IMG/VR virus record: IMGVR_UViG_3300042566_002057
Location: 1-64,000 of that record
Reading direction: 5' to 3' (one strand)
Source: a virus
Length of the DNA stretch: 64,000 bases
Shown here: positions 6,662-35,465 of the stretch, one piece after another
Layout of the letters: every line of letters begins with the position of its first letter
How positions within the stretch are numbered: position 1 is the stretch's first letter
The notes under the pieces: generated by a model
Told to the model about the DNA's origin: nothing
Seen by the model: only the letters and a program-made list of their open reading frames with translations
The model's database searches: none
Translations under genes and position numbers: made by a program

Positions 6662-6738
6662 CGGAGTCCTGAAATAACAGGAAACCCCCACTCCCATATG
6701 GCAGCCAGTCCATTAACCTGGTGAAGTGGGGTTTATAT

Positions 6739-6812
6739 GGTGAATGTAGCTCAATCGGTAGAGCACTGGTTTGTGAAGCCAGAGGTAGCGGGATCGTAAC
6801 CCGTCGTTCACC
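6739..6812 (+). tRNA. tRNA-His(GTG)
   Basis: G-1 and C73; CTGGT-TTGTGAA-GCCAG; atypical T-loop ATCGTAA. Confidence 0.9.
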
Positions 6813-6817
6813 CAAAA

Positions 6818-6889
6818 GGAGACTTAGCTAAGTAGGTTTAGCGTCCGGTTGAAGCCCGGAAGAGGTCGGTTCGATTCCGTCAGTCTCCA
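6818..6889 (+). tRNA. tRNA-Phe(GAA)
   Basis: TCCGG-TTGAAGC-CCGGA; GGAGACT/AGTCTCC acceptor. Confidence 0.85.
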
Positions 6890-6896
6890 CTAAAAA

Positions 6897-6969
6897 GCGT
6901 CATTTGTGTAATGGCTTAGCATCTTCGGTTCCAACCCGAAGGGTCAGGGTTCGAGTCCTTGGTGACGCG
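6897..6969 (+). tRNA. tRNA-Trp(CCA)
   Basis: TTCGG-TTCCAAC-CCGAA; G73. Confidence 0.9.
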
Positions 6970-7063
6970 CAATTACAAGTATGTAATCCAATTTAACTCC
7001 GAATGAGTTAATTGAATGATGTAAGAAGATTTTAGAGTTTAATAATTATAAAATAGAAAAAAA

Positions 7064-7099
7064 ATGAAAAAGAAAATGGAAACTAAACGAAAACGTTAA
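7064..7099 (+). CDS. putative Lys leader peptide MKKKMETKRKR
   Basis: 11 codons with 5 Lys, followed directly by a hairpin (7100-7129) and three Lys tRNAs. Confidence 0.65.
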   Translation: MKKKMETKRKR

Positions 7100-7143: not shown

Positions 7144-7216
7144 GACTTCGTAGCTTAGTAGGTAGAGCACCTGGCTTTTAACCAGGGGGTCGCGAGTTCG
7201 ATTCTCGCCGGGGTCA
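7144..7216 (+). tRNA. tRNA-Lys(TTT)
   Basis: CCTGG-CTTTTAA-CCAGG. Confidence 0.92.
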
Positions 7217-7227
7217 CAAGGTAATAA

Positions 7228-7315
7228 GCACCTATGGCTCAATTGGTAGAGCATCGCACTTTTAATGCGAGGGGTAGACGTAAGTCCGTTGAAGGTTCGA
7301 GTCCTTCTGGGTGCA
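7228..7315 (+). tRNA. tRNA-Lys(TTT) with long variable arm
   Basis: TCGCA-CTTTTAA-TGCGA; extended variable region containing GAC-GTAA-GTC. Confidence 0.85.
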
Positions 7316-7321
7316 CTAAAT

Positions 7322-7396
7322 GACTTCGTATCCGTAATTGGTTTCCGGACCTGACTCTTAATCAGGGATATGTGGGTTCGAGTCCCACCGGAGTCA
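7322..7396 (+). tRNA. tRNA-Lys(CTT)
   Basis: CCTGA-CTCTTAA-TCAGG. Confidence 0.88.
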
Positions 7397-7407
7397 CAAA
7401 TATAAAT

Positions 7408-7575: not shown

Positions 7576-7650
7576 ATGAAAACTATTATGTCAACATCGA
7601 AAAGTTCTAGTCGCTCGTCAAAGATGAGGGAGGTTCGATCGTATTCATAA
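7576..7650 (+). CDS. attenuator leader peptide 3, MKTIMSTSKSSSRSSKMREVRSYS (Ser/Arg)
   Basis: 9 Ser and 3 Arg in 24 codons; GAGGGAGGTTCGA 7626-7638 pairs with the terminator 5' arm. Confidence 0.88.
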   Translation: MKTIMSTSKSSSRSSKMREVRSYS

Positions 7651-7673
7651 TAGTCATAATAAGATATTGTGTT

Positions 7674-7709
7674 AACCCTCGAACCTAAAGTTTGAGGGTT
7701 TTTTGTTTT
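7674..7709 (+). terminator. attenuator terminator 3
   Basis: AACCCTCGAAC-CTAAA-GTTTGAGGGTT plus T-tract. Confidence 0.9.
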
Positions 7710-7713
7710 ATAT

Positions 7714-7787
7714 AGTTCCATAGTTTAATTGGATAAAACACCGGATTACGGCTCCGGAGATTGAGGGTTCGAGTCCTTCTGGAACTA
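7714..7787 (+). tRNA. tRNA-Arg(ACG)
   Basis: CCGGA-TTACGGC-TCCGG. Confidence 0.9.
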
Positions 7788-7793
7788 CAAATT

Positions 7794-7880
7794 GGAAAAG
7801 TAAGAGCAGTTGGTCTAAGCTCGGCGGTCTTGAAAACCGTAGGCCCTAGTGGTGTGTGAGTTCGAGTCTCACCTTTTCCG
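7794..7880 (+). tRNA. tRNA-Ser(TGA)
   Basis: GCGGT-CTTGAAA-ACCGT; long variable arm; G73. Confidence 0.88.
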
Positions 7881-7885
7881 CAAAA

Positions 7886-7969
7886 GGAGAATAAACTAAT
7901 CTGGTGATTAGGACCGCCTGCTAAGCGAGTCGTACTTTATAGTATGGGGTTCAATTCCTCTGTTCTCCG
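7886..7969 (+). tRNA. tRNA-Ser(GCT)
   Basis: CTGCTAA loop; long variable arm; G73. Confidence 0.82.
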
Positions 7970-7975
7970 CTATTT

Positions 7976-8061
7976 GGAGAGTAAACTGATGAGGTCATCA
8001 GCCACGCCTGGAAAGCGTTGGGTGCGTTCAATCGTATGGGTTTCGAGTATTCTGCTCTCCG
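7976..8061 (+). tRNA. tRNA-Ser(GGA)
   Basis: CACGC-CTGGAAA-GCGTT; long variable arm; weak T-stem. Confidence 0.78.
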
Positions 8062-8070
8062 CAAAAATGA

Positions 8071-11000
8071 TTACACAACACCAGTTATTATACCACCAGT
8101 AACAGTAACTATTTGACCATCTGCACTAAATGTTCCTGTCCATCCACTTGATACCGCTGAATCGACATAACCTTTAGTAACAAGTGAGTAAGTAGAAAAA
8201 TTAGCGGTATAATCATCTGTATATACCAGTCCCTTTTGATTAGCATCTGTGACTAATAATCTATTGTCTGAACTTCCATCATTTATATTCTGATCGATAT
8301 TTGTAATTAATATACCAGTAGATAATGATCCATCAAATGCAAAAATTGATGTACTTTGGTTATCTACAAAGACCCTCGAATATGTAGATGAGTCATATGT
8401 TACCTTTAAGTCTATAGCTGTGCCAAAGTTGTATATTCTTGACTCATTCAAGTTATTGTAGACTTTGTTATCAATAAATACAGAAGCTGTCACTGAAAAT
8501 CTTCCTAAGTTATTGATATAAAAGTTCTTTAGATCTCCTTCAATAAAAACTTGTGATGTAAGTGTTCCACCTAATTCAATATTTCCCGAAATACTTTGTG
8601 TTAGACCATTTTCACCCTGAACTTTTTGTGAATCAACATATCCTTTAGTTACAAGTGAATAAGTTGTGAAGTTTCCTACATAATTACCATCATAAACAAT
8701 ACCTTTATTATTGATATTATCAACAACTATTAAAGTGTTATTTATCGAACCATCTGAAATTGCTTGAGATCCAGCATAAGTACTAATAATGCTACTATAT
8801 GTACCAACTCTTGATTCTATTTTAATAGTGTCCATCTCACCTACTAAACCGGATCCCGTTACACCAGGAGCTCCATATATGAGCAAACCACCTGAAATGT
8901 CATGTGCTAAAAATCTAAGTGTGTTAGGACCATGTATCAAAAGTGTTGAACTATTTAAAAATTGTGATCTTGATGAGAAATAAACACTCGAAGTTAATGA
9001 AATTCTAGATGCGCCTAAAAAATGCAAATTTTTGTTGTCTACTTGAACAGTTGTATCTTGAGAAAGTGTTCCACCTAGTCCAATCACTCCTGATGATACA
9101 TAACTTAGACCATTTCCTGGTGTAGTAGATGAAATTGAATCAACATACCCTTTAGTTACAAGTGAATAAGTAGTGAAATTTGCAGTATAATCAGATCTAT
9201 ATACTATACCCTTCTGACTAATATCATCAGCTACTATAATTCTATTATTTGTTGATCCATCGCTTAATGGTTGGTCTTGTGAGTGAAAATTTATTCCAGA
9301 GTATCCAACACCATCAAAATTATATATATTTAATACTCCTGGTGTAATATCTACAATTGAGTAAGTTCCACTAGGATCATCAACTCTAGTATAGTAATTA
9401 TCACCATCATTCCACTGTGCACTAGTATTTGTGGATGGAGAAAAAACTGTATTAACTATAAAAGCTGAAGCTGTGACTGAAAATCTACTAAAATCGTTAA
9501 AATATACATTATTATCATAACCGTCAATAATCACTGGTCCACTTAGAGTTCCTCCTAAACCAATGTATCCTGAACTAAAAGTAAGACCATTATTTACATA
9601 TTGTTGTTTTTCATCAACATATCCTTTAGTAACTAATGAGTAAGTAGTAAAGTTTGGAGAATAATCTCCAACATATACTATTCCTTTATTTGATACATCT
9701 GTGACTAATATATTATTATCCGATGAGCCATCACCAATTGGTTGTGTTTCGTTATGAACTGTAATAGACGATACTCCGTTATTACCCACACTTTCAATAT
9801 TTATTGTACCAATATTTATTCTTGTTCTAGAATAAGTTGCATTATCAATTGTTGCTACTATGTTTTGGTAATCAGCTTGTTGTAAATAAACTTGACTATA
9901 ATAATCAGATGATATAACTCTATTATCTATGTTGTTAGATGCGGTCATTGTAATTCTGTATGCATCTGATATCTCTAAATCATATCCCTGTCCATAGATA
10001 ATTGTATTTAGTGAAAGCACACCACCTAATCCAATTTTATTATCAGTCTGTGACAGACCATTCATCGCATCACTAACAATAGTTTGTTCAGAACCAGAAA
10101 GTCCTGCATTCCAGTATTGAGATGAAGAACTCCAGAATATTTTAGAATAAGTTCCATCTCCTAAATTAACTTCAATTCCAGCATCAATTGCTGGTCCGCT
10201 ATATGTTCCATTAAGAGTTATAAAATTATCCTCGACAACAAGATTTTCTGTATAAATTGTTGATGTAGTTCCTAAAATAGCTAAGTCACCTAAGATAGTA
10301 ACAGAGTCATTAAACTGTCTATTACCATCAATTATGGATTTAAGTGAAACTTGATTACTTCCATTTAATTCAATTGACGTATTATCTACTTGTGATAAGA
10401 AATTACTATCTACATAATTCTTATCTATTAATGAATAAGTAACAAAAGTAGCTGAGTAATCAAATGCGTATCTTAGTCCTTCTAAGTTTCCGGATATAAC
10501 TGTTGAGTTACCGAAATTCAAATTAAATACACTTGGTGAGTAAATAATCAAATCACTTGTATTCATATCAATATATGTCTCTGAAATAGAACCATTATTT
10601 GTTGATATTACGACATTACCACTTGTAAATCCTTCATCTAAGTATATTCTACCACCACCATTACCACTAACTAAAGATGTACCAGTACCCATTACTATAT
10701 TTTGACCCAACGAATCATTGCCCTGAGTTAGTACTTGTTCCAATGTTGGTGTTGTAGAGGCTGGGGCCGTTCCCCAGTAAGCTTGACCAGCACCATCTGT
10801 TAACAATACTTCTGATAATGAACCATCAACATTTGGTAGTTTATAAGCATTATTTATATTAACACTGTTACCTAAATAAACTGTATTTGATTCAGTAGCT
10901 GATAAATTCACACCTCCAATAATAACACTATTATAGATTCCTGATTCAATGAATGCTGACTCAGATGAAATTGATGTTATCGGTGACTGAACAGCTGGTG

Positions 11001-11895
11001 TAGTTGAATAAGTAGTAGTATCTCTTACTAAAATACCATTTTTCCCAGTTAGGTGAGTAGATGAACTAGTTGATGAAAATATACCAATAATTGAGTTTGA
11101 TAAAAATGGTTTGTCTGTTGCTAAAATAACATCATTTGCACTATTAAACTCTAATAAGCCATATCCAGCACCTGATTTAATTCTATCACCATCTTTAATA
11201 ACTAACTGAGGAACATAAACTGTATTATTCTCATCTGCTATCATATCACTTCCTCCAATAATAACTGAGTTTGCTATTCCACCATATGTTGTTGAATTAT
11301 AGCTATTTAAATGTAAACTTGATTTATTAAGAGAACCAATGTCATATGTTGATTCTGATTTTATTATATCAATTTGACCAGAAAGTAAAGATGTATCATT
11401 TAGTGTCACATAATATGAATTCGGTGTGATATTTTGTACACTATAAATGGTTAAGTCTCCTACTCGATTGTTAATACTAATTGAATTTAAGTCAATAGTT
11501 GAAGCAGTATTACTTGTTAAATCAGTCATACTTATTGAAATTTCACCAAGACTTTGCTTGATACTATTTAAACCAAAGTAAGTACCATCATTAGTACTTA
11601 TCTCTAAGGCAGATGTTCCAAAATTAATTTGATTATTGCTTCCAGATGTAATAAGTGAGGTATTAGAACCCATCTCAATAGAGTAGGTTCCAGTGGATGA
11701 ACCCACTTTAAGAACATCTAAAAGTGATGGAGTCGCTGAGATTCCTGCAGTTCCACCAACACCGATTTGTATTATTGTACCGGAAGTATCTTTTTGTTTA
11801 AGAAAGCCATCTAAATCATAACCTATTATCCAACCCTGTGAAGGAGTTGCTGCGGTTGTCATCGAAACGGTAGATCCAAAATTTATAGTGCTCAT
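8071..11895 (-). CDS. long repetitive tail-fibre-like structural protein
   Basis: 1274 aa, Ser/Thr/Gly/Asn rich; five YxxNFTTYSLVTKGYVD-type repeats alternating with NGL...IGLGGTL; upstream AATATATA. Confidence 0.7.
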   Translation of the reverse strand: MSTINFGSTVSMTTAATPSQGWIIGYDLDGFLKQKDTSGTIIQIGVGGTAGISATPSLLDVLKVGSSTGTYSIEMGSNTSLITSGSNNQINFGTSALEISTNDGTYFGLNSIKQSLGEISISMTDLTSNTASTIDLNSISINNRVGDLTIYSVQNITPNSYYVTLNDTSLLSGQIDIIKSESTYDIGSLNKSSLHLNSYNSTTYGGIANSVIIGGSDMIADENNTVYVPQLVIKDGDRIKSGAGYGLLEFNSANDVILATDKPFLSNSIIGIFSSTSSSTHLTGKNGILVRDTTTYSTTPAVQSPITSISSESAFIESGIYNSVIIGGVNLSATESNTVYLGNSVNINNAYKLPNVDGSLSEVLLTDGAGQAYWGTAPASTTPTLEQVLTQGNDSLGQNIVMGTGTSLVSGNGGGRIYLDEGFTSGNVVISTNNGSISETYIDMNTSDLIIYSPSVFNLNFGNSTVISGNLEGLRYAFDYSATFVTYSLIDKNYVDSNFLSQVDNTSIELNGSNQVSLKSIIDGNRQFNDSVTILGDLAILGTTSTIYTENLVVEDNFITLNGTYSGPAIDAGIEVNLGDGTYSKIFWSSSSQYWNAGLSGSEQTIVSDAMNGLSQTDNKIGLGGVLSLNTIIYGQGYDLEISDAYRITMTASNNIDNRVISSDYYSQVYLQQADYQNIVATIDNATYSRTRINIGTINIESVGNNGVSSITVHNETQPIGDGSSDNNILVTDVSNKGIVYVGDYSPNFTTYSLVTKGYVDEKQQYVNNGLTFSSGYIGLGGTLSGPVIIDGYDNNVYFNDFSRFSVTASAFIVNTVFSPSTNTSAQWNDGDNYYTRVDDPSGTYSIVDITPGVLNIYNFDGVGYSGINFHSQDQPLSDGSTNNRIIVADDISQKGIVYRSDYTANFTTYSLVTKGYVDSISSTTPGNGLSYVSSGVIGLGGTLSQDTTVQVDNKNLHFLGASRISLTSSVYFSSRSQFLNSSTLLIHGPNTLRFLAHDISGGLLIYGAPGVTGSGLVGEMDTIKIESRVGTYSSIISTYAGSQAISDGSINNTLIVVDNINNKGIVYDGNYVGNFTTYSLVTKGYVDSQKVQGENGLTQSISGNIELGGTLTSQVFIEGDLKNFYINNLGRFSVTASVFIDNKVYNNLNESRIYNFGTAIDLKVTYDSSTYSRVFVDNQSTSIFAFDGSLSTGILITNIDQNINDGSSDNRLLVTDANQKGLVYTDDYTANFSTYSLVTKGYVDSAVSSGWTGTFSADGQIVTVTGGIITGVV

Positions 11896-11997
11896 CTATC
11901 TGAAATTATTGTTAGAGTATATATTATTTTACAAAGTGTCTTTTATTTTTAACTTTGCAAAAATTTGAGATATAATTTAAAAACACTCACTTAAATT

Positions 11998-12375
11998 ATG
12001 AAATTAGCCTTAATCGCACACGATGGTAAAAAAGCAGATATGGTTGCCTTTGTTATGAAAAGATTAGAATTCTTCAATCATAAAGAGGTAGAGATTGTAG
12101 CGACTGGAACAACCGGTGGTATGATTCAACGAGCCGGAGTGGATAAAGTTAAAACCGTACTTTCAGGACCACTTGGTGGTGACGCTGAAATAGGTTCGAT
12201 GGTTGCTAATGGAGAACTAGATGCTGTTATTTTCTTTAGAGATCCTTTAGACAAACACCCACATGATGTTGATATATCTATGTTAATGAGACTTTGTGAT
12301 GTTCATAATGTTCCATTAGCAACTAATTATAGGAGTGGTGATATTATGGTGAAATATTTTAGAAAAAAGATATGA
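11998..12375 (+). CDS. mgsA: methylglyoxal synthase
   Basis: ALIAHDGKK, ATGTTG, SGPLGGD, FFRDPL, PHDVD and LATN motifs. Confidence 0.97.
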   Translation: MKLALIAHDGKKADMVAFVMKRLEFFNHKEVEIVATGTTGGMIQRAGVDKVKTVLSGPLGGDAEIGSMVANGELDAVIFFRDPLDKHPHDVDISMLMRLCDVHNVPLATNYRSGDIMVKYFRKKI

Positions 12376-12623
12376 CTTGTGGTCAGACAATAGAATTTCT
12401 GACTAGGATATTACAGACTTCTATTGAAAAAAATTTATACGAGTTATCAAATACAATTATCACGATTCAACAACGACTTCTTGAAAAGTATAAATTAGAA
12501 GATATAGTTGAGTTATCTTACTTCACTGAAGTTTTACAGAAATCAATCGGAGGTTTATCTCATGAGGGTAAAGAAATACTATTACCAATTTTAAGAGAAC
12601 TGAAATTAAATACAATTCTTTAA
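12372..12623 (+). CDS. hypothetical protein (C-terminal LRELKLNTIL motif)
   Basis: ORF overlaps the mgsA stop codon. Confidence 0.65.
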   Translation: MTCGQTIEFLTRILQTSIEKNLYELSNTIITIQQRLLEKYKLEDIVELSYFTEVLQKSIGGLSHEGKEILLPILRELKLNTIL

Positions 12624-12991
12624 TACTTAGGTAATTTCATATCAGTTGTGATTTCAATTCTAAAGTTAAATCCAGTATCTTCATCACTTCCATATTTTAC
12701 TTCAGCGTCATAACCCATCTCACCACCAAATGTTGTTGGTTTTGGACCATTCTGAAGTTGTCTACGTCTTTCTTCTTCTCTTCTTCTTTTTTCTTCTTCC
12801 TGAGCAACCATTTGCTCAAATGTTAAGTTATTTTGAGGATTCTGATTATGTTGTATTTCTTCTTGTCTAGTGGAAAATTGAGTAGCATCATATCCATATT
12901 TTCTTAACAGTTCTTCAGCTTCCCAACCGGTAACTTCTCTTTCTGATTCAATGTGTTGTTGATCAACTATTCTTGCTTGTGGTCTTTCCAT
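12620..12991 (-). CDS. hypothetical protein
   Basis: 123 aa ORF. Confidence 0.7.
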   Translation of the reverse strand: MERPQARIVDQQHIESEREVTGWEAEELLRKYGYDATQFSTRQEEIQHNQNPQNNLTFEQMVAQEEEKRRREEERRRQLQNGPKPTTFGGEMGYDAEVKYGSDEDTGFNFRIEITTDMKLPKY

Positions 12992-13008
12992 GATTACATA
13001 TTATTTTT

Positions 13009-13476
13009 TCACAATCTTTTCATTTGTATTGCATTTCCAGCTTGGCTAATACTAAATCCAACCGGTGAGTTCATATCTAAATACCTCTTATATATTTTAG
13101 TTCTAGATGTTACATAGTCTTTTTCTAAGTCTTTTGCTAAACCAACAAAGAAAATGTTTTTAGCCCAATAACATCTTTTCGTAAAGTCATTTAAGATATC
13201 ACCAAATACAGTTTCTAATACTTTATAAGGATTTACATTTACAATCTTACTAACTGAATAAGAACCTTCGTCTTCTACAAAATAAAGTAACTCATAAACA
13301 GTACTTAATTCACCAACTTTATTAACTGGTATGTTTTTAAATTCAACTAAGTAGTTATTATTTTCTGAATCTAAAAATTCATACTTATACATAAATGGAT
13401 CATCTGATATTAAATTAAATCCATAAGAGTCAACTTTTTCATTTATAAAGTTATCATATAATGATATTTTTCTCAT
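13009..13476 (-). CDS. hypothetical protein (N-terminal ISLYDNFINE motif)
   Basis: 155 aa ORF; upstream AATATATA. Confidence 0.7.
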   Translation of the reverse strand: MRKISLYDNFINEKVDSYGFNLISDDPFMYKYEFLDSENNNYLVEFKNIPVNKVGELSTVYELLYFVEDEGSYSVSKIVNVNPYKVLETVFGDILNDFTKRCYWAKNIFFVGLAKDLEKDYVTSRTKIYKRYLDMNSPVGFSISQAGNAIQMKRL

Positions 13477-13560
13477 AAATCTATATATTAAATTAAAAAA
13501 AAGTATTAAAATCCAAAAACAGAGAAAACTTTTTGTTATATATACATATAATTAGAACAT

Positions 13561-13633
13561 CGCGGGGTGGAGCAGTCGGTAGCTCGCTAGGCTCATAACC
13601 TAGAGGTCACACGTTCGAGTCGTGTCCCCGCTA
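13561..13633 (+). tRNA. tRNA-fMet(CAT)
   Basis: CGCGGGGTGGAGCAG start; C1 mismatch; CTCATAA loop. Confidence 0.92.
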
Positions 13634-13700
13634 CTAAAAAAATAAAAATAAATTTGGTAGATTAAAAAAGTCTACTTATATTTGTAAAACAATTAAAGAA

Positions 13701-13778
13701 ATGATGACAACAGTTGCAACATATTATTATGAGGTCGAGAGCAAAAGCTCCGTCAGACGAGTATTAGTTATGTCGTAA
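13701..13778 (+). CDS. attenuator leader peptide 4, MMTTVATYYYEVESKSSVRRVLVMS (Tyr/Glu)
   Basis: TAT TAT TAT GAG GTC GAG; GTCAGAC 13752-13758 pairs with GTCTGAC of the terminator; promoter TTTG 13653 / TATATTTG 13677. Confidence 0.88.
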   Translation: MMTTVATYYYEVESKSSVRRVLVMS

Positions 13779-13800
13779 TTGAAAAATATTATATAACTTA

Positions 13801-13836
13801 AACCCAGTCTGACTTCAGATTGGGTTTTTTGTTTTT
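13801..13836 (+). terminator. attenuator terminator 4
   Basis: AACCCAGTCTGA-CT-TCAGATTGGGTT plus T-tract. Confidence 0.9.
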
Positions 13837-13846
13837 AAATTAATTT

Positions 13847-13914
13847 GGGATGGGTTATGGTGACGGCCGGATCTGTAAAATCCTAGCAGGTGAGTTCGAG
13901 TCTCACGCATCCCA
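13847..13914 (+). tRNA. tRNA-Tyr(GTA)-like, reduced D-arm and short variable region
   Basis: GGAT-CTGTAAA-ATCC; GTGAG-TTCGAGT-CTCAC T-arm; only about 68 nt. Confidence 0.6.
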
Positions 13915-13919
13915 CAAAT

Positions 13920-13953
13920 GGTCCTGTCGACTAATGGTTAGGTCAACACCCTT
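13920..13953 (+). pseudogene. 5' half of a tRNA-Glu-like gene ending in the anticodon loop
   Basis: GGTCCTGTCGACTAATGGTTAGGTCAACACCCTT followed by an A-rich promoter region. Confidence 0.7.
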
Positions 13954-14019
13954 AAAAAATAAAAACAAAAAAGATATTGTGGATTAAAAAAGTTTAATTA
14001 TCTTTGTAAAACAAAAGAC

Positions 14020-14091
14020 GGTCCCATCGTCTAACGGTTAGGACATTAGGTTTTCATCCTAAAAATCGGAGTTCGATTCTCCGTGGGACTA
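14020..14091 (+). tRNA. tRNA-Glu(TTC)
   Basis: TTAGG-TTTTCAT-CCTAA. Confidence 0.92.
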
Positions 14092-14186
14092 CAAATGTCG
14101 GAGTAATTAACCGATACTAACAAGAAGATGTATCATATATCGCAGTGAGATTTGGTACCAGTAATTTCTGATATGTCTACTTGAAT

Positions 14187-14265
14187 AACTGCTTATGGTG
14201 TAAATTGGTTTGCACGTCGGTCACTAAGGCCGAAGGGTTATAGGTTCGAGTCCTATGGGTAGTTC
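14187..14265 (+). tRNA. atypical tRNA with CTA anticodon (amber suppressor candidate)
   Basis: TCGGT-CACTAAG-GCCGA; 7-bp D-stem GTGTAAA/TTTGCAC; canonical T-arm. Confidence 0.6.
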
Positions 14266-14270
14266 AACAT

Positions 14271-14353
14271 TGGAAGGTGGCAGAGTGGTTAAATGCGGCG
14301 GACTGTAAATCCGCTCTCTTACGAGTACGGGGGTTCGAATCCCTCTCTTCCAA
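14271..14353 (+). tRNA. tRNA-Tyr(GTA)
   Basis: GCGGA-CTGTAAA-TCCGC; long variable arm. Confidence 0.93.
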
Positions 14354-14448
14354 CAAATAATATAATACTGTATCATGATGTTCCATGATTGAAAGTTTAT
14401 AATAGGGAAAAGAAAACTTTTTATATATACAATAATATAAATAATACA

Positions 14449-14526
14449 ATGAAGAATTTACTTAACATATCAGCATTTATAGCGAACGGCGCGGGGAGTG
14501 ACCGTAGTTGGCTGGTTGTTATGTAA
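14449..14526 (+). CDS. attenuator leader peptide 5, MKNLLNISAFIANGAGSDRSWLVVM (Ile-ATA/Ala/Gly)
   Basis: ATA TCA GCA TTT ATA GCG AAC GGC GCG GGG; TGGCTGG 14509-14515 pairs with CCAGTCA of the terminator. Confidence 0.85.
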   Translation: MKNLLNISAFIANGAGSDRSWLVVM

Positions 14527-14553
14527 ATTTCAGATATTGAAACTAACATACTT

Positions 14554-14582
14554 AACCCAGTCAGAAATGATTGGGTTTTTTT
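14554..14582 (+). terminator. attenuator terminator 5
   Basis: AACCCAGTCA-GAAA-TGATTGGGTT plus T-tract. Confidence 0.9.
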
Positions 14583-14586
14583 ATTT

Positions 14587-14667
14587 CGGCAAGTACCGTT
14601 GGAATCTTATACATTCTATACACGTAGCGGGAAGTTGAAAACGTGGGTTCGAATCCCACCTTGCCGA
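14587..14667 (+). tRNA. non-canonical tRNA-Ile(TAT)-like RNA lacking a normal D-arm
   Basis: CGGCAAG/CTTGCCG acceptor; TGGAAT-CTTATAC-ATTCTA arm; canonical T-arm. Confidence 0.6.
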
Positions 14668-14679
14668 CAAATGATACAA

Positions 14680-14753
14680 GCGGGTATCGTATAATGGTTT
14701 AATTACACCGGCCTTCCAAGTCGGTGATGTCGGTTCGATTCCGGTTACCCGCA
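14680..14753 (+). tRNA. tRNA-Gly(TCC)
   Basis: CCGGC-CTTCCAA-GTCGG. Confidence 0.9.
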
Positions 14754-14758
14754 CAAAT

Positions 14759-14834
14759 GGGCTAGCATGTTCCAAGGCTTCGGCGACTTACCCTTGCAAG
14801 GTAGGTGTGGTGGGTTCGATTCCCATCTGGTCCA
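14759..14834 (+). tRNA. tRNA-Ala(TGC)
   Basis: TTACC-CTTGCAA-GGTAG; G3-U70; irregular D-arm. Confidence 0.8.
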
Positions 14835-14855
14835 CAAAAAAAATAAATATGAGGA

Positions 14856-14981
14856 ATGAAAGTAGTAATTAAAGGCGAATTTAAATCAAGTAAAGTAAAT
14901 CTAAGAAATTCAGAAGAAATTAAATTAGATGTTTATTTAGAAAGACTAATTAAAAAGATTAAAAAGAGAATTAAAAAATAA
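14856..14981 (+). CDS. small basic hypothetical protein (41 aa) inside the tRNA cluster
   Basis: MKVVIKGEFKSSKVNLRNSEEIKLDVYLERLIKKIKKRIKK fills the tRNA spacer. Confidence 0.4.
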   Translation: MKVVIKGEFKSSKVNLRNSEEIKLDVYLERLIKKIKKRIKK

Positions 14982-14986
14982 AATAA

Positions 14987-15062
<76 letters not shown>

Positions 15063-15104
15063 AAATGCCGGGTGATCCACCGTTGAATCACGGTGCCGGC
15101 TCCA

Positions 15105-15178
15105 GGGGGATTAGCTCATTTGGCTAGAGCGCTTGTCTGGCAGACAAGAGGTGACGAGTTCAATCCTCGTATCCTCCA
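15105..15178 (+). tRNA. tRNA-Ala(GGC)
   Basis: CTTGT-CTGGCAG-ACAAG; G3-U70. Confidence 0.92.
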
Positions 15179-15180
15179 CA

Positions 15181-15215
15181 AAAAAGTCTAGTTATTTATT
15201 TAACTAGACTTTTTT
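15181..15215 (+). terminator. intrinsic terminator after the Gly/Ala cluster
   Basis: AAAAAGTCTAGTTA...TAACTAGACTTTTTT. Confidence 0.75.
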
Positions 15216-15228
15216 AATATATAACATT

Positions 15229-15726
15229 ATGAAATATCTTAGAAGATTTAATGAAAATATTAGCATGTACGATCCTGAATGGAAGGAGTCTTTACCTGAA
15301 ACTTTTTCAATATTAAAAGGAGAGGATGATGGTGTACATAAACACGTTTATAAGAAAGGTAATATTATGTTAAATTCTGATATGGTCCAGATAACTTATT
15401 ATAATGAAGACTGGGGTATACCAGATACTTTAGAATTCGATATTCATACAGTTAGAGACACGCAAACTGGTGACTTGAGACTAGATATTGACATTACATA
15501 TGGTAATGAAGTTGCTTGTGAATTTTCAATTGACAAAACAAATGGAGTTAGAGTAATCCAAGACACCACTTATCATTCCAAGTTTGACCCATCTAATACT
15601 GTATTTGCTTTTACTGATGATAGTCTTAAGCAATTTGTGGAATTCTTAAACAGATTTAACACTGGTATAAAAGTAACCACTCATGATTTGAGATTTTTAG
15701 ACGGTTATGATAATTATCAACATTAA
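15229..15726 (+). CDS. hypothetical protein (MKYLRRFNE motif); paralog of the N-terminal domain of 33836..35218
   Basis: Shared EFDIH...DITYG...EF.I...SK(F/Y)D...FN.GI segments. Confidence 0.75.
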   Translation: MKYLRRFNENISMYDPEWKESLPETFSILKGEDDGVHKHVYKKGNIMLNSDMVQITYYNEDWGIPDTLEFDIHTVRDTQTGDLRLDIDITYGNEVACEFSIDKTNGVRVIQDTTYHSKFDPSNTVFAFTDDSLKQFVEFLNRFNTGIKVTTHDLRFLDGYDNYQH

Positions 15727-15814
15727 TTTGACTAATTGATTTTTTTATTTATATTTGTTATTGAGGAAACTTATTTTCAATTTTCTCGTATATTTATAAA
15801 TACAAACACATTTT

Positions 15815-16468
15815 ATGCTTAGTAACGAACAAGTTCAACAAATAAAACAAATTATCGAATCAGATCCAAGATTTGTAACAAAAATCAATGAGGCTATTTC
15901 TTATACTGGTAAAGAAAGTGGTCATTCGCACGCTTCTCCAATGGAAGATATGATTCGTGAAATTCTTATTGATAAATTAGGAGCTAAAAAATCATCCAAA
16001 GACCGTTCACTTGCTGATATCTACTTAAATGATAATTTAATAAATGTTAAGTTTGGTTCTCCAAAAATCCAACCGAATGGTCGACCTAAATATGGTCAAC
16101 CAAATATGTGTGCTATGAGAAGAATTATGAAAGAGTTTTATTATGACTCTACTATTGATTCTTATTACATTATCAAAGTTAATCTAAAAAATGGTGAATA
16201 TACTTTACATGTCTTTGATATGTTAGATTATATTGACTATCTTACTTGGAATTCGGGTACTGGTCAAATTATGTTGAAAGAAAATGACTTTTATAATATA
16301 ATAAATACTTATGTACCAAGTTTAAATATTGAAGAGAAAAAGACTAAAATCAAAGATTTATATGATTTTGGATGTGAGAAGCATATTCTTCTTAGAATAA
16401 ATCAATATATGTCACAGTCTAATAATTCTGAAAGATTTAAAACTCAACTACGAAAACTGTTAGAGTGA
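15815..16468 (+). CDS. putative type II restriction endonuclease (PD-(D/E)XK-like)
   Basis: E...ADIYLNDNLINVKFG catalytic-like pattern; convergent with a methyltransferase. Confidence 0.55.
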   Translation: MLSNEQVQQIKQIIESDPRFVTKINEAISYTGKESGHSHASPMEDMIREILIDKLGAKKSSKDRSLADIYLNDNLINVKFGSPKIQPNGRPKYGQPNMCAMRRIMKEFYYDSTIDSYYIIKVNLKNGEYTLHVFDMLDYIDYLTWNSGTGQIMLKENDFYNIINTYVPSLNIEEKKTKIKDLYDFGCEKHILLRINQYMSQSNNSERFKTQLRKLLE

Positions 16469-16495
16469 AGAAGCCACCGCTTGTCGGTGGTTTTT

Positions 16496-18097
16496 TTATA
16501 CTTTATAAAGTTCTTCAATATTTAAGTTAAAGTCTTCTGGTGTAATTCCATTATTTTTCTTATAGTTAATACTTTCCTTTACTAACTGAATTGCTTTCTG
16601 TTTGTTTTCTTCACTTACCCAGAACGGATAAGGTAATCTTTCGATATCTTTACTTTGTATATTTTTAGTGTGATTAATAACACTTTTTAATATCTCATTA
16701 CATTTAGATGTAAGTAACCACCCAATAATAAAAAGTAGTTCTGATTTATTAACACCTTCTTTTAATACAGCTATCGGAGCTCCTGAGTCTAAAATATAAC
16801 CAGATGGTAAGTATCTTGCTTTTATGGATGATGAAATAAGTTGCCAAGTAAGACCTTCTCTTTTAAAATAAGGTTTACCACCAACACCGTGTAAGTACCA
16901 GTTACCATTTTTCTTAAAAGTTATACAAGCATCGCCATCATCTTTCCAGAATATCACAGTATTTGGTTTACTATAAAGAGTCTCATTAGTCGCTTTATTA
17001 TAATAACAATAATCACTATTTGGAATAGTTATTACAGACGGAGTTTCTTTCTTAGTTATTGAAATATTTCTACGAGTTGATCCAGATTTTTCTAAATCCT
17101 GATACTCTTTTATTTTACCTAATGATAACTTATTATTTCTAGCTTTTGATATTTCTCTTTCTAATGTAATTGGATCATCAAAGAATGTAAAGTCATACTC
17201 TTCAATAATTGTATTGTCTTCTCTGATATCCCTTAAAAAAAGTTCGTTTTTACCAACAGTCATTCCACTTGTTCCAATTAAGTAACTTTGTAGTTTTTCT
17301 CCAACAAAATACTTTACATATTCTTGTTGAATATACCAAGAAAAATTACTTGTTAGAATCATATTATCATAAGGTATTTCAACGCTATCTAATAATATGT
17401 GGTTTTGATGATTTGATTTATGATGTGTTAAAACTATCATTGGATAATCAGTTTCTTCTGAGAAGTTTAATAATCTTTCTATTTGATTATAACCTTGTTC
17501 ATAAAGAAATAATCTTAAACCAGTCATTGTTTTGATTGTAAGAAATGTATCAGATGATATAAAAACTAATTTACCATCTGGTTTAAGACATTCAATTGAT
17601 TTAATCATAAAGAATGAGTAAGTCTCTTTTTTAATTTTGTGACCGTTTCTTATACCATACTTTTTATCCATTTCATCTTGATACTTTGGATCGATTGTTC
17701 CTCCAAATGGTGGATTTCCTATGATATAATCAAAACCATCTACTGTAGGATTGTAAAGAAAGTAATCTGAAAGTAATAAGTTATGAGTTTCTGGTAAGAA
17801 TCCATACTTTTCTTTTATGTTTTCAAGACACTCGTTGTAAAGTTCAGAATCATATTCTACACCATAAAGATTATTATTAAGAATCTTGGTAAGTTTTTCT
17901 TCTACTGTACCTTCATAAATTTCTAAAAATTCATCTATTATACTGATAATAAAATTACCACATCCAAAAGAAGGTTCTAATACTTTATTTGATTTAGTGA
18001 AAGTGTATCTTTTAACAATTGACCGACATTTGTCAATTGGTGTCATAAATTGACCTAATTGTTTCTTCTTTGTTCTCTGTGTTTTAACTTCTGCCAT
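16496..18097 (-). CDS. N6-adenine DNA methyltransferase (gamma class, Eco57I/TaqI-like)
   Basis: GQFMTP, VLEPSFGCGNF (motif I), IIGNPPF (motif IV). Confidence 0.92.
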   Translation of the reverse strand: MAEVKTQRTKKKQLGQFMTPIDKCRSIVKRYTFTKSNKVLEPSFGCGNFIISIIDEFLEIYEGTVEEKLTKILNNNLYGVEYDSELYNECLENIKEKYGFLPETHNLLLSDYFLYNPTVDGFDYIIGNPPFGGTIDPKYQDEMDKKYGIRNGHKIKKETYSFFMIKSIECLKPDGKLVFISSDTFLTIKTMTGLRLFLYEQGYNQIERLLNFSEETDYPMIVLTHHKSNHQNHILLDSVEIPYDNMILTSNFSWYIQQEYVKYFVGEKLQSYLIGTSGMTVGKNELFLRDIREDNTIIEEYDFTFFDDPITLEREISKARNNKLSLGKIKEYQDLEKSGSTRRNISITKKETPSVITIPNSDYCYYNKATNETLYSKPNTVIFWKDDGDACITFKKNGNWYLHGVGGKPYFKREGLTWQLISSSIKARYLPSGYILDSGAPIAVLKEGVNKSELLFIIGWLLTSKCNEILKSVINHTKNIQSKDIERLPYPFWVSEENKQKAIQLVKESINYKKNNGITPEDFNLNIEELYKV

Positions 18098-18200
18098 CTA
18101 AGAAATAGTTTTTAATTATATCGGAAATTTGATAATATGTTTAATTTGTTTATTATCGGAAGTATATACATTTATATATATGTAAAAATAAGTATAGATT

Positions 18201-18371
18201 ATGCCAGCAAAAGATAAAATGTTTTCTTTAAGAATTCCTGAAAAACTTCTGGAAGAATACAGACAATTCTGTGAAGAAAACTCAATTAATATATCTAAAA
18301 GACTTAGAAAGTTTATGGAAAGAGATTTAGAGGTGTGGTATCAGAAGAAAAAATCTAATATCGGAAAATAA
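18201..18371 (+). CDS. ribbon-helix-helix DNA-binding protein (56 aa)
   Basis: MPAKDKMFSLRIPEKLLEEYRQFCEENSINISKRLRKFM pattern; divergent from the MTase; below the ORF-track cutoff. Confidence 0.75.
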   Translation: MPAKDKMFSLRIPEKLLEEYRQFCEENSINISKRLRKFMERDLEVWYQKKKSNIGK

Positions 18372-18395
18372 TATATACAAAAAATAGAATAAACA

Positions 18396-19805
18396 ATGAG
18401 ATATATTAAAGGCTACTCAAAATTTATAAATGAATCAAAAAGAGAAATTGAAAAAAATGCTTTAATTGTTGAAAAGCAAGTACTTAATGAGTTTTCCTCT
18501 GACTTTTGGTCATTGTGTTTAAGATCTAAAATATTCACTAATGAGGAAAAATCTTATATCGAAAATAACTTGATTGGTCAAAATGTTTCTTTGGTAACTG
18601 AAGAGTGGGAATGGTTAGATAAAGCTGTAGATTGGGCTAAAGACAAAGGAGAGAAAATGTTAAACTTTGTCGGTGATAAAATTAAAGCTGTTAAAAATGG
18701 TCTTAAAGAATTTGTCAGCTCAATGGTTGCTTTTGCTAAGAAATTATTTATTTCTGGATTAAATGGTGTTTTATCACAAGCTGCTAAGTTCAAACAAAAA
18801 ATTTCAGGAGACGGTAAAGTAAAAAAACAAATTGAGGAACTAGATCCTCAAAAGTCTAAAAATGAAATCGAAGATTTAAAGAAGACCTTTCAATTTTGGG
18901 CACCTGGTAAAACAGCAGCTGAAGCAAAACCATCAGCTGATGTAGCAGCAGGTCAAATTGAGGCTAAACTAAAAACAGCAGAAGGTGAAGCTGTTTCATC
19001 AACTGAGAAAAACTTAACAGAAGCTGAAGAAGAAGCAAAGAATGAATCAGTATCAACAATTATCTATTCTACTTCAGATGATATTTTAGAAAGTTTTTAT
19101 AATCTTTCATTAATAAAAGAAGCTGAAGAAGCTCCAGAAGGTGGTGAAGAAAAAAAGACAACTGGTCAAAAATGTATTGATTGGATTTTAGGATTCTTAG
19201 GTCAAGAGAAAATGGATCCAGATGCTAAAACAGGAAAGAAATTATTCTGGTGGGGTAAATTATTCTTAAAAATTCTTTCTACTTGTTTAAGTCCTATTCT
19301 AAAAGTAGTTGAAGTTTTAGTTAAAACTGGTGCTAATTTAGCACTTAAAGGTGTTTCAATGATTACAGGAGCTTTAGGTGGTCCCGGTGCTTTTGAATTT
19401 GCTTTACTTGGTGGTTTATGTGGTGGAATTATCGGTATAATATATGATTCACTTATGTTATTTGGTGATGCTGGAGCATCAACTGGTGCTGATACAATGG
19501 GTATGGTTAAAAAGTGGTTAGCACACGCTATAAATGAATCACTTGAATTATTTCCATCTTATAAAACATTAAAGTATATCTTTGCTGGATTTTGTGCTGG
19601 AATGACACTTTGGCATGTTATTGAAGAAATCAAACATTTAATGCATGCTGGTCACGGAGAACACAAAGAAGGCGAAGCGAAGGAAGGAGAAGCTGTAAAA
19701 CCAGGAGAAAAACCTGTGGTAACAAAACCTGGAGAGAAACCTGAACCTGTTAAACCAGGAGAAAAACCAGCAACTGGAGGAGCACCTGCACCAGCAGCGG
19801 CATAA
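18396..19805 (+). CDS. hypothetical protein with hydrophobic segments and a KPGEKP-rich tail (probable virion protein)
   Basis: MRYIKGYSKFINE N-terminal motif; upstream AATATATA. Confidence 0.75.
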   Translation: MRYIKGYSKFINESKREIEKNALIVEKQVLNEFSSDFWSLCLRSKIFTNEEKSYIENNLIGQNVSLVTEEWEWLDKAVDWAKDKGEKMLNFVGDKIKAVKNGLKEFVSSMVAFAKKLFISGLNGVLSQAAKFKQKISGDGKVKKQIEELDPQKSKNEIEDLKKTFQFWAPGKTAAEAKPSADVAAGQIEAKLKTAEGEAVSSTEKNLTEAEEEAKNESVSTIIYSTSDDILESFYNLSLIKEAEEAPEGGEEKKTTGQKCIDWILGFLGQEKMDPDAKTGKKLFWWGKLFLKILSTCLSPILKVVEVLVKTGANLALKGVSMITGALGGPGAFEFALLGGLCGGIIGIIYDSLMLFGDAGASTGADTMGMVKKWLAHAINESLELFPSYKTLKYIFAGFCAGMTLWHVIEEIKHLMHAGHGEHKEGEAKEGEAVKPGEKPVVTKPGEKPEPVKPGEKPATGGAPAPAAA

Positions 19806-19918
19806 AAAATTAAAAATATTTTAATTAAATTTGGTAGAATTAAAACTTTTATCTAATTTTGTATAAAATAATGACAAAAACCTCGAAAGAGAGTAATAAC
19901 TTTTAATATATAACAACA

Positions 19919-20032
19919 ATGAGAACAAATAATACAAATATGATGAACCTGACACTCAATGTGGTGAATATTACGTTATGTAATATTAGACCGTCTGAGG
20001 GTTCCTTCCTATTTAGAAAATTTGTCTCGTAA
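19919..20032 (+). CDS. attenuator leader peptide 6, MRTNNTNMMNLTLNVVNITLCNIRPSEGSFLFRKFVS
   Basis: Codons 1-24 use only M,R,T,N,L,V,I,C, the amino acids of the 14 downstream tRNAs; TCTGAGGGTTC 19994-20004 pairs with the terminator 5' arm. Confidence 0.92.
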   Translation: MRTNNTNMMNLTLNVVNITLCNIRPSEGSFLFRKFVS

Positions 20033-20063
20033 AATGTGACGTATTTATAACTAAATATAAAAA

Positions 20064-20095
20064 GAACCCTCAGATAAAAATCTGAGGGTTTTTTT
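20064..20095 (+). terminator. attenuator terminator 6
   Basis: GAACCCTCAGAT-AAAA-ATCTGAGGGTTT plus T-tract. Confidence 0.92.
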
Positions 20096-20110
20096 ATGTC
20101 TAAAAAATTA

Positions 20111-20195
20111 CGGTAGGTACCCGAGCGGTCTTCAGGGACCAGTCTGATACACTGGGTGAGAAATCACAACGTGGGTTCAAATCCCACCCTACCGA
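20111..20195 (+). tRNA. tRNA-Ile(GAT) with long variable arm
   Basis: CCAGT-CTGATAC-ACTGG; variable hairpin GTGA-GAAA-TCAC. Confidence 0.82.
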
Positions 20196-20203
20196 CAAAA
20201 TAT

Positions 20204-20275
20204 GGCTCCTTCGTCCAATGGATAGGACGTCGCTCTTCTAAAGCGAAGATACTGGTTCGAATCCAGTAGGGGCTA
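20204..20275 (+). tRNA. tRNA-Arg(TCT)
   Basis: TCGCT-CTTCTAA-AGCGA. Confidence 0.9.
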
Positions 20276-20285
20276 CAAATAAAAT

Positions 20286-20367
20286 GCCGAGGTGGTGGAA
20301 TGGTAGACACACCAGTTTAAGAAGCTGGTATCCTCAGGGTGTGAGAGTTCGAGTCTCTCCCTCGGTA
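20286..20367 (+). tRNA. tRNA-Leu(AAG)
   Basis: CCAGT-TTAAGAA-GCTGG; Leu-type body with long variable arm. Confidence 0.85.
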
Positions 20368-20373
20368 CAAAAT

Positions 20374-20462
20374 GGGCTTGTAGCTGATTTGGTTTTAGCT
20401 GGTGACTGTTAATCACTGTATGAAAAATTGAAATAAAGTAGGTTCGAATCCTACCTGGCCCG
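20374..20462 (+). tRNA. tRNA-Asn(GTT) with long variable region
   Basis: GGTGA-CTGTTAA-TCACT; G73. Confidence 0.78.
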
Positions 20463-20468
20463 CAAATC

Positions 20469-20539
20469 GCCCCGATGGCGTAAAGGTAGCGTATCTCTTT
20501 TACATGGAGAAGGCAGTGGTTCGATACCACTTCGGGGTA
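20469..20539 (+). tRNA. tRNA-Val(TAC)
   Basis: TCTCT-TTTACAT-GGAGA. Confidence 0.85.
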
Positions 20540-20546
20540 CTAAAAT

Positions 20547-20619
20547 TGTCAGTTAGCTCATTTGGTAGAGCACTTGTCTGATACACAAGAGGTGGTGGGA
20601 TCGTAACCCGCACTGACAA
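20547..20619 (+). tRNA. tRNA-Ile(GAT)
   Basis: CTTGT-CTGATAC-ACAAG; ATCGTAA T-loop. Confidence 0.87.
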
Positions 20620-20625
20620 CAACAA

Positions 20626-20708
20626 GCACCTGTGGTCGAGTGGTGTCGTAAGACGAGAGGCACTGGATTGCAAACCCAGTCACGGGGGTTCGAATCCCTC
20701 CAGGTGCT
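20626..20708 (+). tRNA. tRNA-Cys(GCA) with extra hairpin in the D-loop
   Basis: TTGCAAA loop; U73; GTC-GTAA-GAC insert. Confidence 0.82.
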
Positions 20709-20716
20709 CAAAATAT

Positions 20717-20788
20717 GCTGATGTCGTATAATGGTTATTACATTGCCTTTGTAACGCAAATATGTGGGTTCGACTCCCTCCATCAGCT
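20717..20788 (+). tRNA. tRNA-Thr(TGT)
   Basis: GCTGATG/CATCAGC acceptor; TTTGTAA loop. Confidence 0.82.
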
Positions 20789-20794
20789 CTAAAA

Positions 20795-20866
20795 TGTCTC
20801 GTAGTTTAATGGGAAAACGTTACCTTGACATGGTAAAGAGAGTGGGATCGTTACCCACCGAGACAA
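20795..20866 (+). tRNA. tRNA-Val(GAC)
   Basis: TTACC-TTGACAT-GGTAA. Confidence 0.85.
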
Positions 20867-20871
20867 CAAAA

Positions 20872-20990
20872 AATAATGGATGGTGATTGCAAGGGTTACT
20901 TCGTTTAATGACTAAACAATTGACTTTTAATCAATCTACACTGGTTCGATCCCAGTAGTATATCACTCTTCAAGGCTTTCCTCCGTTATT
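20872..20990 (+). ncRNA. tRNA-Lys(TTT)-like core embedded in a structured element, no normal acceptor end
   Basis: D-like arm, ATTGA-CTTTTAA-TCAAT and ACTGG-TTCGATC-CCAGT, flanked by TGATTGCAAGGGTTACTTCG and ACTCTTCAAGGCTTTCCTCC. Confidence 0.6.
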
Positions 20991-20996
20991 TTATTT

Positions 20997-21069
20997 GCCT
21001 CTATGACGTAATTGGCAGTCGTATGCGCCTTAGAAGCGTAGTGTCCGAGTTCGAATCTCGGTAGAGGTA
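20997..21069 (+). tRNA. tRNA-Leu(TAG), short variable loop
   Basis: TGCGC-CTTAGAA-GCGTA. Confidence 0.85.
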
Positions 21070-21083
21070 CAAACAAAACGAAT

Positions 21084-21156
21084 GCCCCGGTGACGTAATT
21101 GGCAGTCGTATCCGGCTTAAAATCGGAGTGTGCGGGTTCGAATCCCGTCTGGGGTA
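21084..21156 (+). tRNA. tRNA-Leu(TAA), short variable loop
   Basis: TCCGG-CTTAAAA-TCGGA. Confidence 0.85.
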
Positions 21157-35463: not shown

Positions 35464-35465
35464 AT

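Follow-up and report, generated by a model that had tools for sequence, protein, structure and literature searches.

The DNA examined here is the first 64 kb of the 152-kb IMG/VR record IMGVR_UViG_3300042566_002057, a viral sequence with a GC content of ~31%. We refer to this whole stretch of 64,000 nucleotides (nt) as the window, and all coordinates are positions on its + strand. The transfer RNA (tRNA) genes of the entire record were confined to 6.5–45 kb. One arrangement recurred seven times upstream of tRNA clusters: a short ATG-started open reading frame (ORF), a hairpin, and then the first tRNA. We numbered these elements leaders 1 to 7 (Table 1). The terminators of leaders 1, 3, 5, 6 and 7 had a 10–12 bp G+C-containing stem and a U tract, with a tRNA following 5–20 nt later, and an independent scan placed the leader hairpins as the top-ranked terminator-like sites in the region. 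The closest relatives in the phage collection were the uncultured huge phages LR745206.1 (635 kb) and LR756502.1 (642 kb), the second of which is genome W02 in our alignments and counts.

Host-type promoters were found solely before leaders 1, 4, 6 and 7 (6336, 13653, 19830 and 35219). For this reason the region reads as four putative operons: A (leaders 1, 2 and 3), B (leaders 4 and 5), C (leader 6) and D (leader 7). The promoter pattern TTTG-N17-22-TAnnTTTG had 18 matches in the window vs 4.45 expected, and one protein of the phage carried a CHU_C type IX secretion domain; together, these two features suggest a host among the Bacteroidota. An ATATATA motif was also seen 10–20 nt ahead of the start codons at 6416, 7576, 14449, 19919 and 35310, and thus before leaders 3 and 5, both of which are without a host-type promoter. 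This motif could act either in transcription, as a phage-type promoter, or as a signal for translation.

Table 1. Leaders, promoters, terminators and tRNA genes of the four putative operons.
Feature	Position	Strand	Content	Basis
Bacteroidota-type promoter (TTTG..TAnnTTTG), operon A	6336..6367	+	49 nt before leader 1	pattern match
Leader 1 ORF	6416..6517	+	sensor R H K H F S K S S K W F S (H, H, F, W, F for cluster 1); CGC at codon 5	
Leader 1 intrinsic terminator	6542..6577	+		hairpin/terminator scans
tRNA cluster 1	6589..6970	+	Phe, His, Phe, Trp	tRNA calls
Leader 2 (Lys leader)	7064..7099	+	MKKKMETKRKR; K-rich; Arg codons CGA, CGT	
tRNA-Lys	7144..7397	+	Lys(TTT) x2, Lys(CTT)	tRNA calls
Leader 3 (Ser/Arg leader)	7576..7650	+	Ser run plus R; CGC 7612-7614, AGG 7627-7629, CGA 7636-7638	
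Leader 3 intrinsic terminator	7674..7706	+		hairpin/terminator scans, alignment
tRNA-Arg and three tRNA-Ser	7714..8061	+	Arg(ACG) 7714-7788, Ser(TGA), Ser(GCT) 7885-7969, Ser(GGA) 7976-8061	Ser(GGA) by eye; ARAGORN calls Ser(GGA) in relatives
Operon B promoter	13653..13684	+		pattern match
Leader 4, including terminator 13800-13827	13701..13833	+	YYYEVE; tRNAs Tyr, Glu	
Leader 5	14449..14526	+	sensor I, A, I, A, G, A, G; ATA 14467-14469, 14479-14481; GCA, GCG, GGC, GCG, GGG	
Leader 5 intrinsic terminator	14554..14583	+		hairpin/terminator scans
RNAs behind leader 5	14587..15179	+	UAU-anticodon tRNA-like RNA (14587-14667), Gly(TCC), Ala(TGC), Gly(GCC), Ala(GGC)	
Operon C promoter	19830..19861	+		pattern match
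Leader 6	19919..20032	+	AGA x3, ATT x2, CTG, CTC, TTA	
Leader 6 intrinsic terminator	20063..20098	+		hairpin/terminator scans
tRNA cluster 6	20111..21397	+	14 tRNAs: Ile(GAT) x2, Arg(TCT), Leu(AAG, TAG, TAA, CAA), Asn, Val(TAC, GAC), Cys(GCA), Thr(TGT, GGT), a CAT tRNA; one odd tRNA-like	Cys(GCA) by eye; ARAGORN calls Cys in relatives
Operon D	35219..36017	+	promoter (35219), leader 7 PQPQDQD (35310-35405), terminator (35428-35460), Gln, Pro, Asp twice over	

The amino-acid match between leaders and tRNA clusters was very strong. When the seven leaders were assigned to the seven clusters in all 5040 permutations, the true assignment was the single best; 62 of 123 sensor-zone codons matched the amino acids of the cluster downstream. 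Codons 2–24 of leader 6 encoded exclusively R, T, N, M, L, V, I and C, and all 23 matched that leader's own cluster (P = 1.4e-9). Leader 1 also held K, S and R, and 13 of its 19 sensor codons matched the union of clusters 1–3 (P = 2e-4). In most relatives the sensor run of leader 4 was I A Y Y Y E G E, which equals the union of clusters 4 and 5. Because leaders 1 and 4 match the unions of their operon clusters, the first leader of a stacked operon appears to sense all clusters behind it. The genes downstream are tRNAs, not genes that make or charge the sensed amino acid.

The same units occurred in the same order in LR745206.1, LR756502.1 and ~8 IMG/VR records, making at least 10 related huge-phage genomes, and a pattern search located 33 further loci in lake, marine and other metagenomes. 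The pattern was built from the non-Ile parts of leader 5 only. False pattern matches (L020, L074–L077, L081 and L085) were left out. A 1274-aa neighbour protein used as query for related loci gave no match. Where relatives had a separate Gln tRNA cluster, that cluster had its own poly-Gln leader and terminator (e.g. MTTTQQIQQQQINQTD), and the Pro/Asp leader remained with the Pro and Asp tRNAs. Short ORFs are common in an AT-rich genome, and those before the tRNAs could be chance frames in tRNA 5' leaders, with the hairpins serving as ordinary terminators or processing sites and no translation-dependent control. We consider this very improbable. Besides the permutation result, the ORFs, their frames and their amino-acid runs were kept over tens of loci in which synonymous and flanking positions varied, leader content followed cluster content (as in the separate poly-Gln leader), and the region 2 segments described below covaried with their terminators.

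The leaders have the anatomy of an attenuator. Near the end of the ORF lies a segment that we call region 2, which in leaders 1, 4, 5, 6 and 7 could pair with the terminator's 5' half, and the sensor runs stopped one to four codons before it. In leader 1, region 2 (GTTCGG) and the terminator had changed together in LR756502.1; in leader 5, the antiterminator strand is TGGCTG at 14509–14514. An alignment of eight genomes showed that the antiterminator AGGTTCGA/TCGAACCT of the Ser/Arg leader, whose first strand lies at 7631–7638, was paired in 63 of 63 cells. One base pair of this helix was G-C in five and A-U in the other three genomes, and this G-C/A-U terminator column also covaried with its partner in the terminator stem. 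Candidate 1:2 or pause helices that overlap the sensor codons were 83–92% paired but nearly invariant, so covariation could say little about them. No T-box or other known riboswitch was among the Rfam gathering-scan matches in the window. The Lys leader has an 11-bp hairpin (7100–7129) directly 3' of it, without a U tract, and its mode of action may differ from that of the other leaders.

At the sequence level, a putative attenuator framework is strongly supported by this anatomy, by conservation and by covariation; leader translation, stalling, readthrough and the physiological trigger are inferred. With a probability of roughly 0.6, we propose that the tRNA operons of this huge phage are gated by ribosome-mediated (leader-peptide) transcription attenuators that are codon-resolved and partially tuned to isoacceptors. 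In such a circuit a host-type promoter would start the transcript, and its first feature would be an ORF of 10–37 codons with a central stretch of codons specifying the amino acids of tRNAs encoded later in that operon. When the tRNA for the ribosomal A site was scarce or uncharged, the ribosome would stall in the sensor run; region 2 would stay free and pair with the terminator 5' half, and RNA polymerase would read into the tRNA genes. When the ribosome ran on, region 2 would be covered or paired elsewhere and the terminator would form. The spacing between sensor and region 2 would suit this classical model, in which a stalled ribosome leaves region 2 free. Because the output of the circuit is tRNA, it would act as feedback on decoding capacity, and because the tRNA that decodes a codon determines whether the ribosome stalls there, the sensor would be codon-resolved by construction. 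On logical grounds, the tRNA output favours the sensing of decoding capacity over that of amino-acid supply.

The initial annotation had gone further, claiming that leader codons match downstream tRNAs at the level of the isoacceptor: CGC before tRNA-Arg(ACG), AGA before Arg(TCT), ATA before the UAU-anticodon RNA and ATT before Ile(GAT). All of the codons and tRNAs that it listed were found where it had placed them. This claim can be tested for just two amino acids, Arg (ACG in operon A, TCT in C) and Ile (UAU in B, GAT in C), because the isoacceptors of other amino acids are not split between operons. The phage tRNA set is nearly full, and for most amino acids the isoacceptors all lie within one cluster, so that any synonymous codon fits for Leu, Ser, Gly, Ala, Val and Thr. 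The agreement between the Leu codons of leader 6 and the TAG, AAG and TAA tRNAs, which had also been put forward, is automatic in this sense, as all four Leu tRNAs stand in that one cluster.

Codon usage in genes was taken from 115 long ORFs of this genome. Among their 1259 Arg codons AGA made up 81%, CGT 10%, CGA 4% and AGG 4%; CGC occurred three times (3/1259), and CGN as a whole reached 15%. The sensor zones of operon A in the window carried CGC (leader 1), CGA and CGT (leader 2) and CGC (leader 3). In the Ser/Arg leader the string AGT CGC TCG was identical in all eight genomes and AGTCGCTC was unchanged across them, and LR756502.1 had independently added a second Arg codon to the Ser run, CGT. 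Across seven genomes the Arg codons of the Lys leader were 8 CGN and 1 AGA. Among distinct leaders, the ratio of CGN to AGR was 29:5 in operon A vs 20:36 in all others (4:11 in leader 6, 16:25 in leaders without an Arg tRNA behind them). In a family-level rank test, the rank sum of operon A was reached in 2 of 56 choices (P ~0.04). Separately, we observed that the last sense codon of the Lys leader was an Arg CGN in five of the seven genomes, AGA in W02 and Pro CCA in genome G006.

For Ile, usage in genes was 51% ATT, 35% ATA and 13% ATC. The sensor zone of leader 5, in 26 distinct sequences, contained 61 ATA, 11 ATT and 10 ATC codons, and all 26 had at least two ATA codons, at shifting positions. 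The common I-I pair of this leader was ATT ATA, ATA ATC, ATC ATA or ATA ATA. Over whole ORFs, ATA vs ATY was 79:35 in operon B leaders (69% ATA) and 7:41 in all other leaders, and the zone of leader 6 had ATT throughout. The family-level test for Ile gave 1/21 (P ~0.05). The CGC of leader 1 and the ATA of leader 4 are consistent with this pattern because both leaders are promoter-headed and cover the clusters behind them. Combining the two family tests post hoc gave P ~0.01, which is suggestive of an isoacceptor match of ATA with the UAU RNA and of CGN with Arg(ACG).

The RNA that leader 5 would serve scored 33.8 bits with the Rfam tRNA model. Its D arm is nearly lacking, and a 22-nt insert resembling a D arm lies in the variable region. 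This build was kept in ~33 of 39 related loci (including L041, L043, L058, L059, L064 and L066), with many compensatory variants of the anticodon stem. In 33 of the 39 loci the anticodon loop of the RNA after the leader-5 terminator read CUUAUAY or CUUAUAA, and the 26 loci with the CUUAUAY loop had nine distinct anticodon-stem sequences, 8 of them fully paired. Given this loop and the paired variant stems, we regard the UAU RNA as real on comparative grounds, though odd.

The claims for leader 6 fared less well. Its AGA and ATT codons carry no weight as isoacceptor evidence, as both are default codons (81% and 51%); against genome-wide usage, CGC and ATA were beyond chance and AGA and ATT were not. 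AGA in leader 6 was accordingly rejected as a sensor of Arg(TCT): apart from AGA being the default codon, the conserved AGA24 (19988–19990) abuts region 2, TCTGAGGGTTC at 19994–20004, and a ribosome paused at AGA24 would mask the antiterminator. AGA2 was present in the window, in the closest relative (L083) and also in L058. The Arg(CCT) tRNAs of genomes W01 and W02, considered as an extra test, were dropped; a protein gene precedes them and there is no leader.

Several results weigh against isoacceptor tuning. For Arg, CGN was raised in every leader family (23–89% vs 15% in genes), and 8 of the 11 Arg codons of leader 5, which has no Arg tRNA behind it, were CGN. In the Ser/Arg leader the final base of CGC pairs in a small conserved hairpin (7614–7619 with 7623–7628) as CG in 8 of 8 genomes, and CGA21 of this leader belongs to the antiterminator. 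The same leader has AGG18 in the window and AGA16 in genome G001. Leader 6 of G003, G005 and L073, a subclade of this leader, reads AGA CGC ... CGA, and the clusters behind these copies include either Arg(TCT) or no Arg tRNA at all; in cluster 6 of G003, no Arg(TCT) was called by ARAGORN. For Ile, ATT or ATC stood in the sensor zone of 20 of the 26 leader-5 sequences, and Ile(GAT) is encoded elsewhere. ATA7 lies within an invariant AACATA, the reverse complement of a conserved TATGTT near the stop codon; this pairing resembles a 1:2 helix. The two ATT codons of leader 6 sit in one hairpin, AATATTAC/GTAATATT. In relatives, the presence of Glu(CTC), Gln(CTG) and Pro(AGG) tRNAs was unlinked to GAG, CAG and CCT in leaders, presence of the Leu(AAG) tRNA showed no correlation with leader codon choice, and sensor codons hardly sampled the G34 isoacceptors Ala-GGC, Val-GAC and Thr-GGT. 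Lastly, the sequences are related, so that raw counts overstate their independence.

The initial annotation had also taken the many G/C-ending codons of the sensor runs as a sign of tRNA targeting. The excess was real, at 20 of 59 sensor codons vs 9.8 expected, and it was equally present in non-matching codons (19/57 vs 8.4) and in the tails (18/53 vs 7.5). All three classes had ~2x the expected G+C at third codon positions (GC3) and 3–4x the expected rare codons. GC over the three codon positions was 0.35, 0.42 and 0.37 in leaders vs 0.41, 0.33 and 0.19 in genes. In the poly-Gln and poly-Lys leaders, which are simple in structure, the common codons CAA and AAA were used, GC3 was 0.14 and there was no excess of G/C-ending codons. 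Because the excess is equal in non-sensor and tail codons and lacking in these simple leaders, it was rejected as a sensor-specific feature. We concluded that it reflects the RNA-structure and composition needs of leaders, not tRNA targeting.

These data bear on a rival explanation, in which the attenuators sense amino acids only, synonymous choice follows from RNA structure and a GC-richer composition, and the Arg/Ile split is a by-product of descent and structure. The uniform GC3 and rare-codon excess and the flat GC over leader codon positions, unlike that of genes, agree with it, as do the conserved helices that contain ATA7, the last base of CGC and the two ATT codons of leader 6, the frequent CGN in leaders without an Arg tRNA downstream, and the failure of Glu, Gln and Pro tRNA content to track codon choice. 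Structure, however, fixes just the third base of CGC, yet Arg-CGN was kept in eight genomes against a default of 81% AGA, and the extra Arg codon in the sensor run of W02 was also CGT. With column 7 removed, leader 5 still had 36 ATA vs 25 ATY codons (36/61, compared with 7/48 in other leaders), and leader 4 dropped to genome level; ATA was retained in 26 of 26 distinct leader-5 sequences despite its moving position. Moreover, amino-acid sensing alone gives no sensible logic, because extra tRNA does not relieve amino-acid starvation. We think it rather unlikely that amino acids alone are sensed.

Isoacceptor tuning for Arg and Ile is partial, not exclusive, and is confounded by RNA structure. 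The skew of CGN towards Arg(ACG) and of ATA towards the UAU RNA was strong, with the exceptions and helix overlaps given above. Homologous leaders kept CGC (8/8 genomes) and ATA (26/26). Because the conserved codons overlap conserved helices, conservation among homologues does not separate tRNA matching from RNA structure.

Returning to attenuators that gauge decoding, we tentatively suggest that the feedback could be isoacceptor-resolved, a possibility to which we give somewhat less than even odds. Each attenuator would gauge the decoding of the codons served by its gated tRNA, and only depleted tRNAs would be refilled. It is just as tentative that the depletion would come from host anticodon nucleases or from the phage's own host shut-off, with the stacked leaders providing hierarchical control. 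A narrower version, also present in the initial annotation, holds that selection shaped the sensors to register the loss of particular tRNA species to host anticodon nucleases and that the gated tRNAs are replacements, forming an inducible counter-defence. Phage tRNAs do rescue infection from tRNA-cleaving defences, as described for T5 tRNAs against retron and PARIS systems and for mycobacteriophage tRNAs (PMC11555353, PMC12409363, PMC10264068). A stall-based sensor would respond to tRNA cleavage, and in an informal tally the sensor codons of four-codon boxes leaned to purine endings, which are U34-read (~16/21). In the window, however, there was no sign of a nuclease, of tRNA repair enzymes or of nuclease-resistant anticodon loops. 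Nearly all amino acids are covered, which is a better fit to general supply control than to narrow nucleases, and host tRNA decay induced by the phage, or simple demand, would predict the same behaviour. We consider a dedicated counter-defence improbable; as triggers, an anticodon nuclease, phage-driven loss of host tRNA and plain demand are indistinguishable from sequence.

The proposed leaders resemble the trpL, hisL, pheL, leuL, thrL, ilvL and pheST attenuators in having a short ORF with a regulatory codon run, an intrinsic terminator, an exclusive antiterminator that uses the terminator 5' half, and a sensor a few codons before region 2. Unlike these amino-acid-operon attenuators, they are phage-borne and would gate tRNAs rather than biosynthetic enzymes or synthetases; a single leader could sense as many as eight amino acids, leaders stand in series within one operon and the first spans every cluster that follows, and the Lys leader hairpin has no U tract. 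The leu leader of enterobacteria contains rare CUA codons and is codon-tuned. The his leader serves as a codon-speed meter, which indicates that such leaders respond at the codon level (PMC4046918). As in the leu leader and this hisL assay, the response of the phage leaders would be set by the synonymous codon, and thus the isoacceptor, in the leader. The output of leu and hisL is amino-acid synthesis, whereas here the codon would match the tRNA gene that is switched on. T-box riboswitches likewise control terminator readthrough and sense tRNA via its anticodon (specifier codon); unlike in the T-box, sensing in the phage would run through a translating ribosome and not through direct RNA-tRNA pairing.

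The control and purpose of phage tRNA arrays are debated, with codon compensation, host shut-off and counter-defence all under discussion. Like the tRNA sets of T5 and mycobacteriophages, the large set of this phage could replace depleted host tRNAs; unlike the present proposal, the papers on those phages describe no demand-sensing control of the tRNA genes. We found no description of leader-peptide attenuation of tRNA genes in the literature searched. If the proposal is true, leader attenuators before tRNA genes mean that a phage gauges decoding capacity and replies with tRNA supply. If the codons match single tRNA species, the leaders would be natural reporters of the tRNAs that run short during infection, and the counter-defence idea would be directly testable. 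Such elements are found widely in metagenomes from lakes and the sea, so they are more than an oddity of a single genome.

Other features of the region were as follows. A degenerate Tyr(GTA)-like RNA comes first after the leader-4 terminator (13844–13953), and behind it lie a truncated 5' copy of tRNA-Glu, a second promoter-like site and an intact tRNA-Glu at 14020. A weak tRNA-like element at 14187–14264 has the anticodon loop CACUAAG (CUA, amber-suppressor type); ARAGORN called 'Pyl(cta)' tRNAs in relatives L019, L058 and L067, and TAG was the stop codon of 12 of the 115 long ORFs. Odd tRNA-like genes at 7408–7535 and 20880–20966, also present in W01 and G001, share a common repeated motif, (GATTGAAA)GAGTTACTTCG or GGGTTACTTCG. 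One has a long insertion, and the anticodon varied between homologues of such a gene (TTT in the window, TCT in G001). A class I Glu/Gln-tRNA synthetase gene (Pfam tRNA-synt_1c, 3.6e-73) at 22159–23616 adjoins tRNA cluster 6, and a ClpB-like ATPase is encoded at 46536–48644. A GOLLD RNA (Rfam RF02032, 298.9 bits) at 44297–44706 is surrounded by a tRNA-Met (43732) and odd tRNA-like genes (43456, 44720 and 44878).

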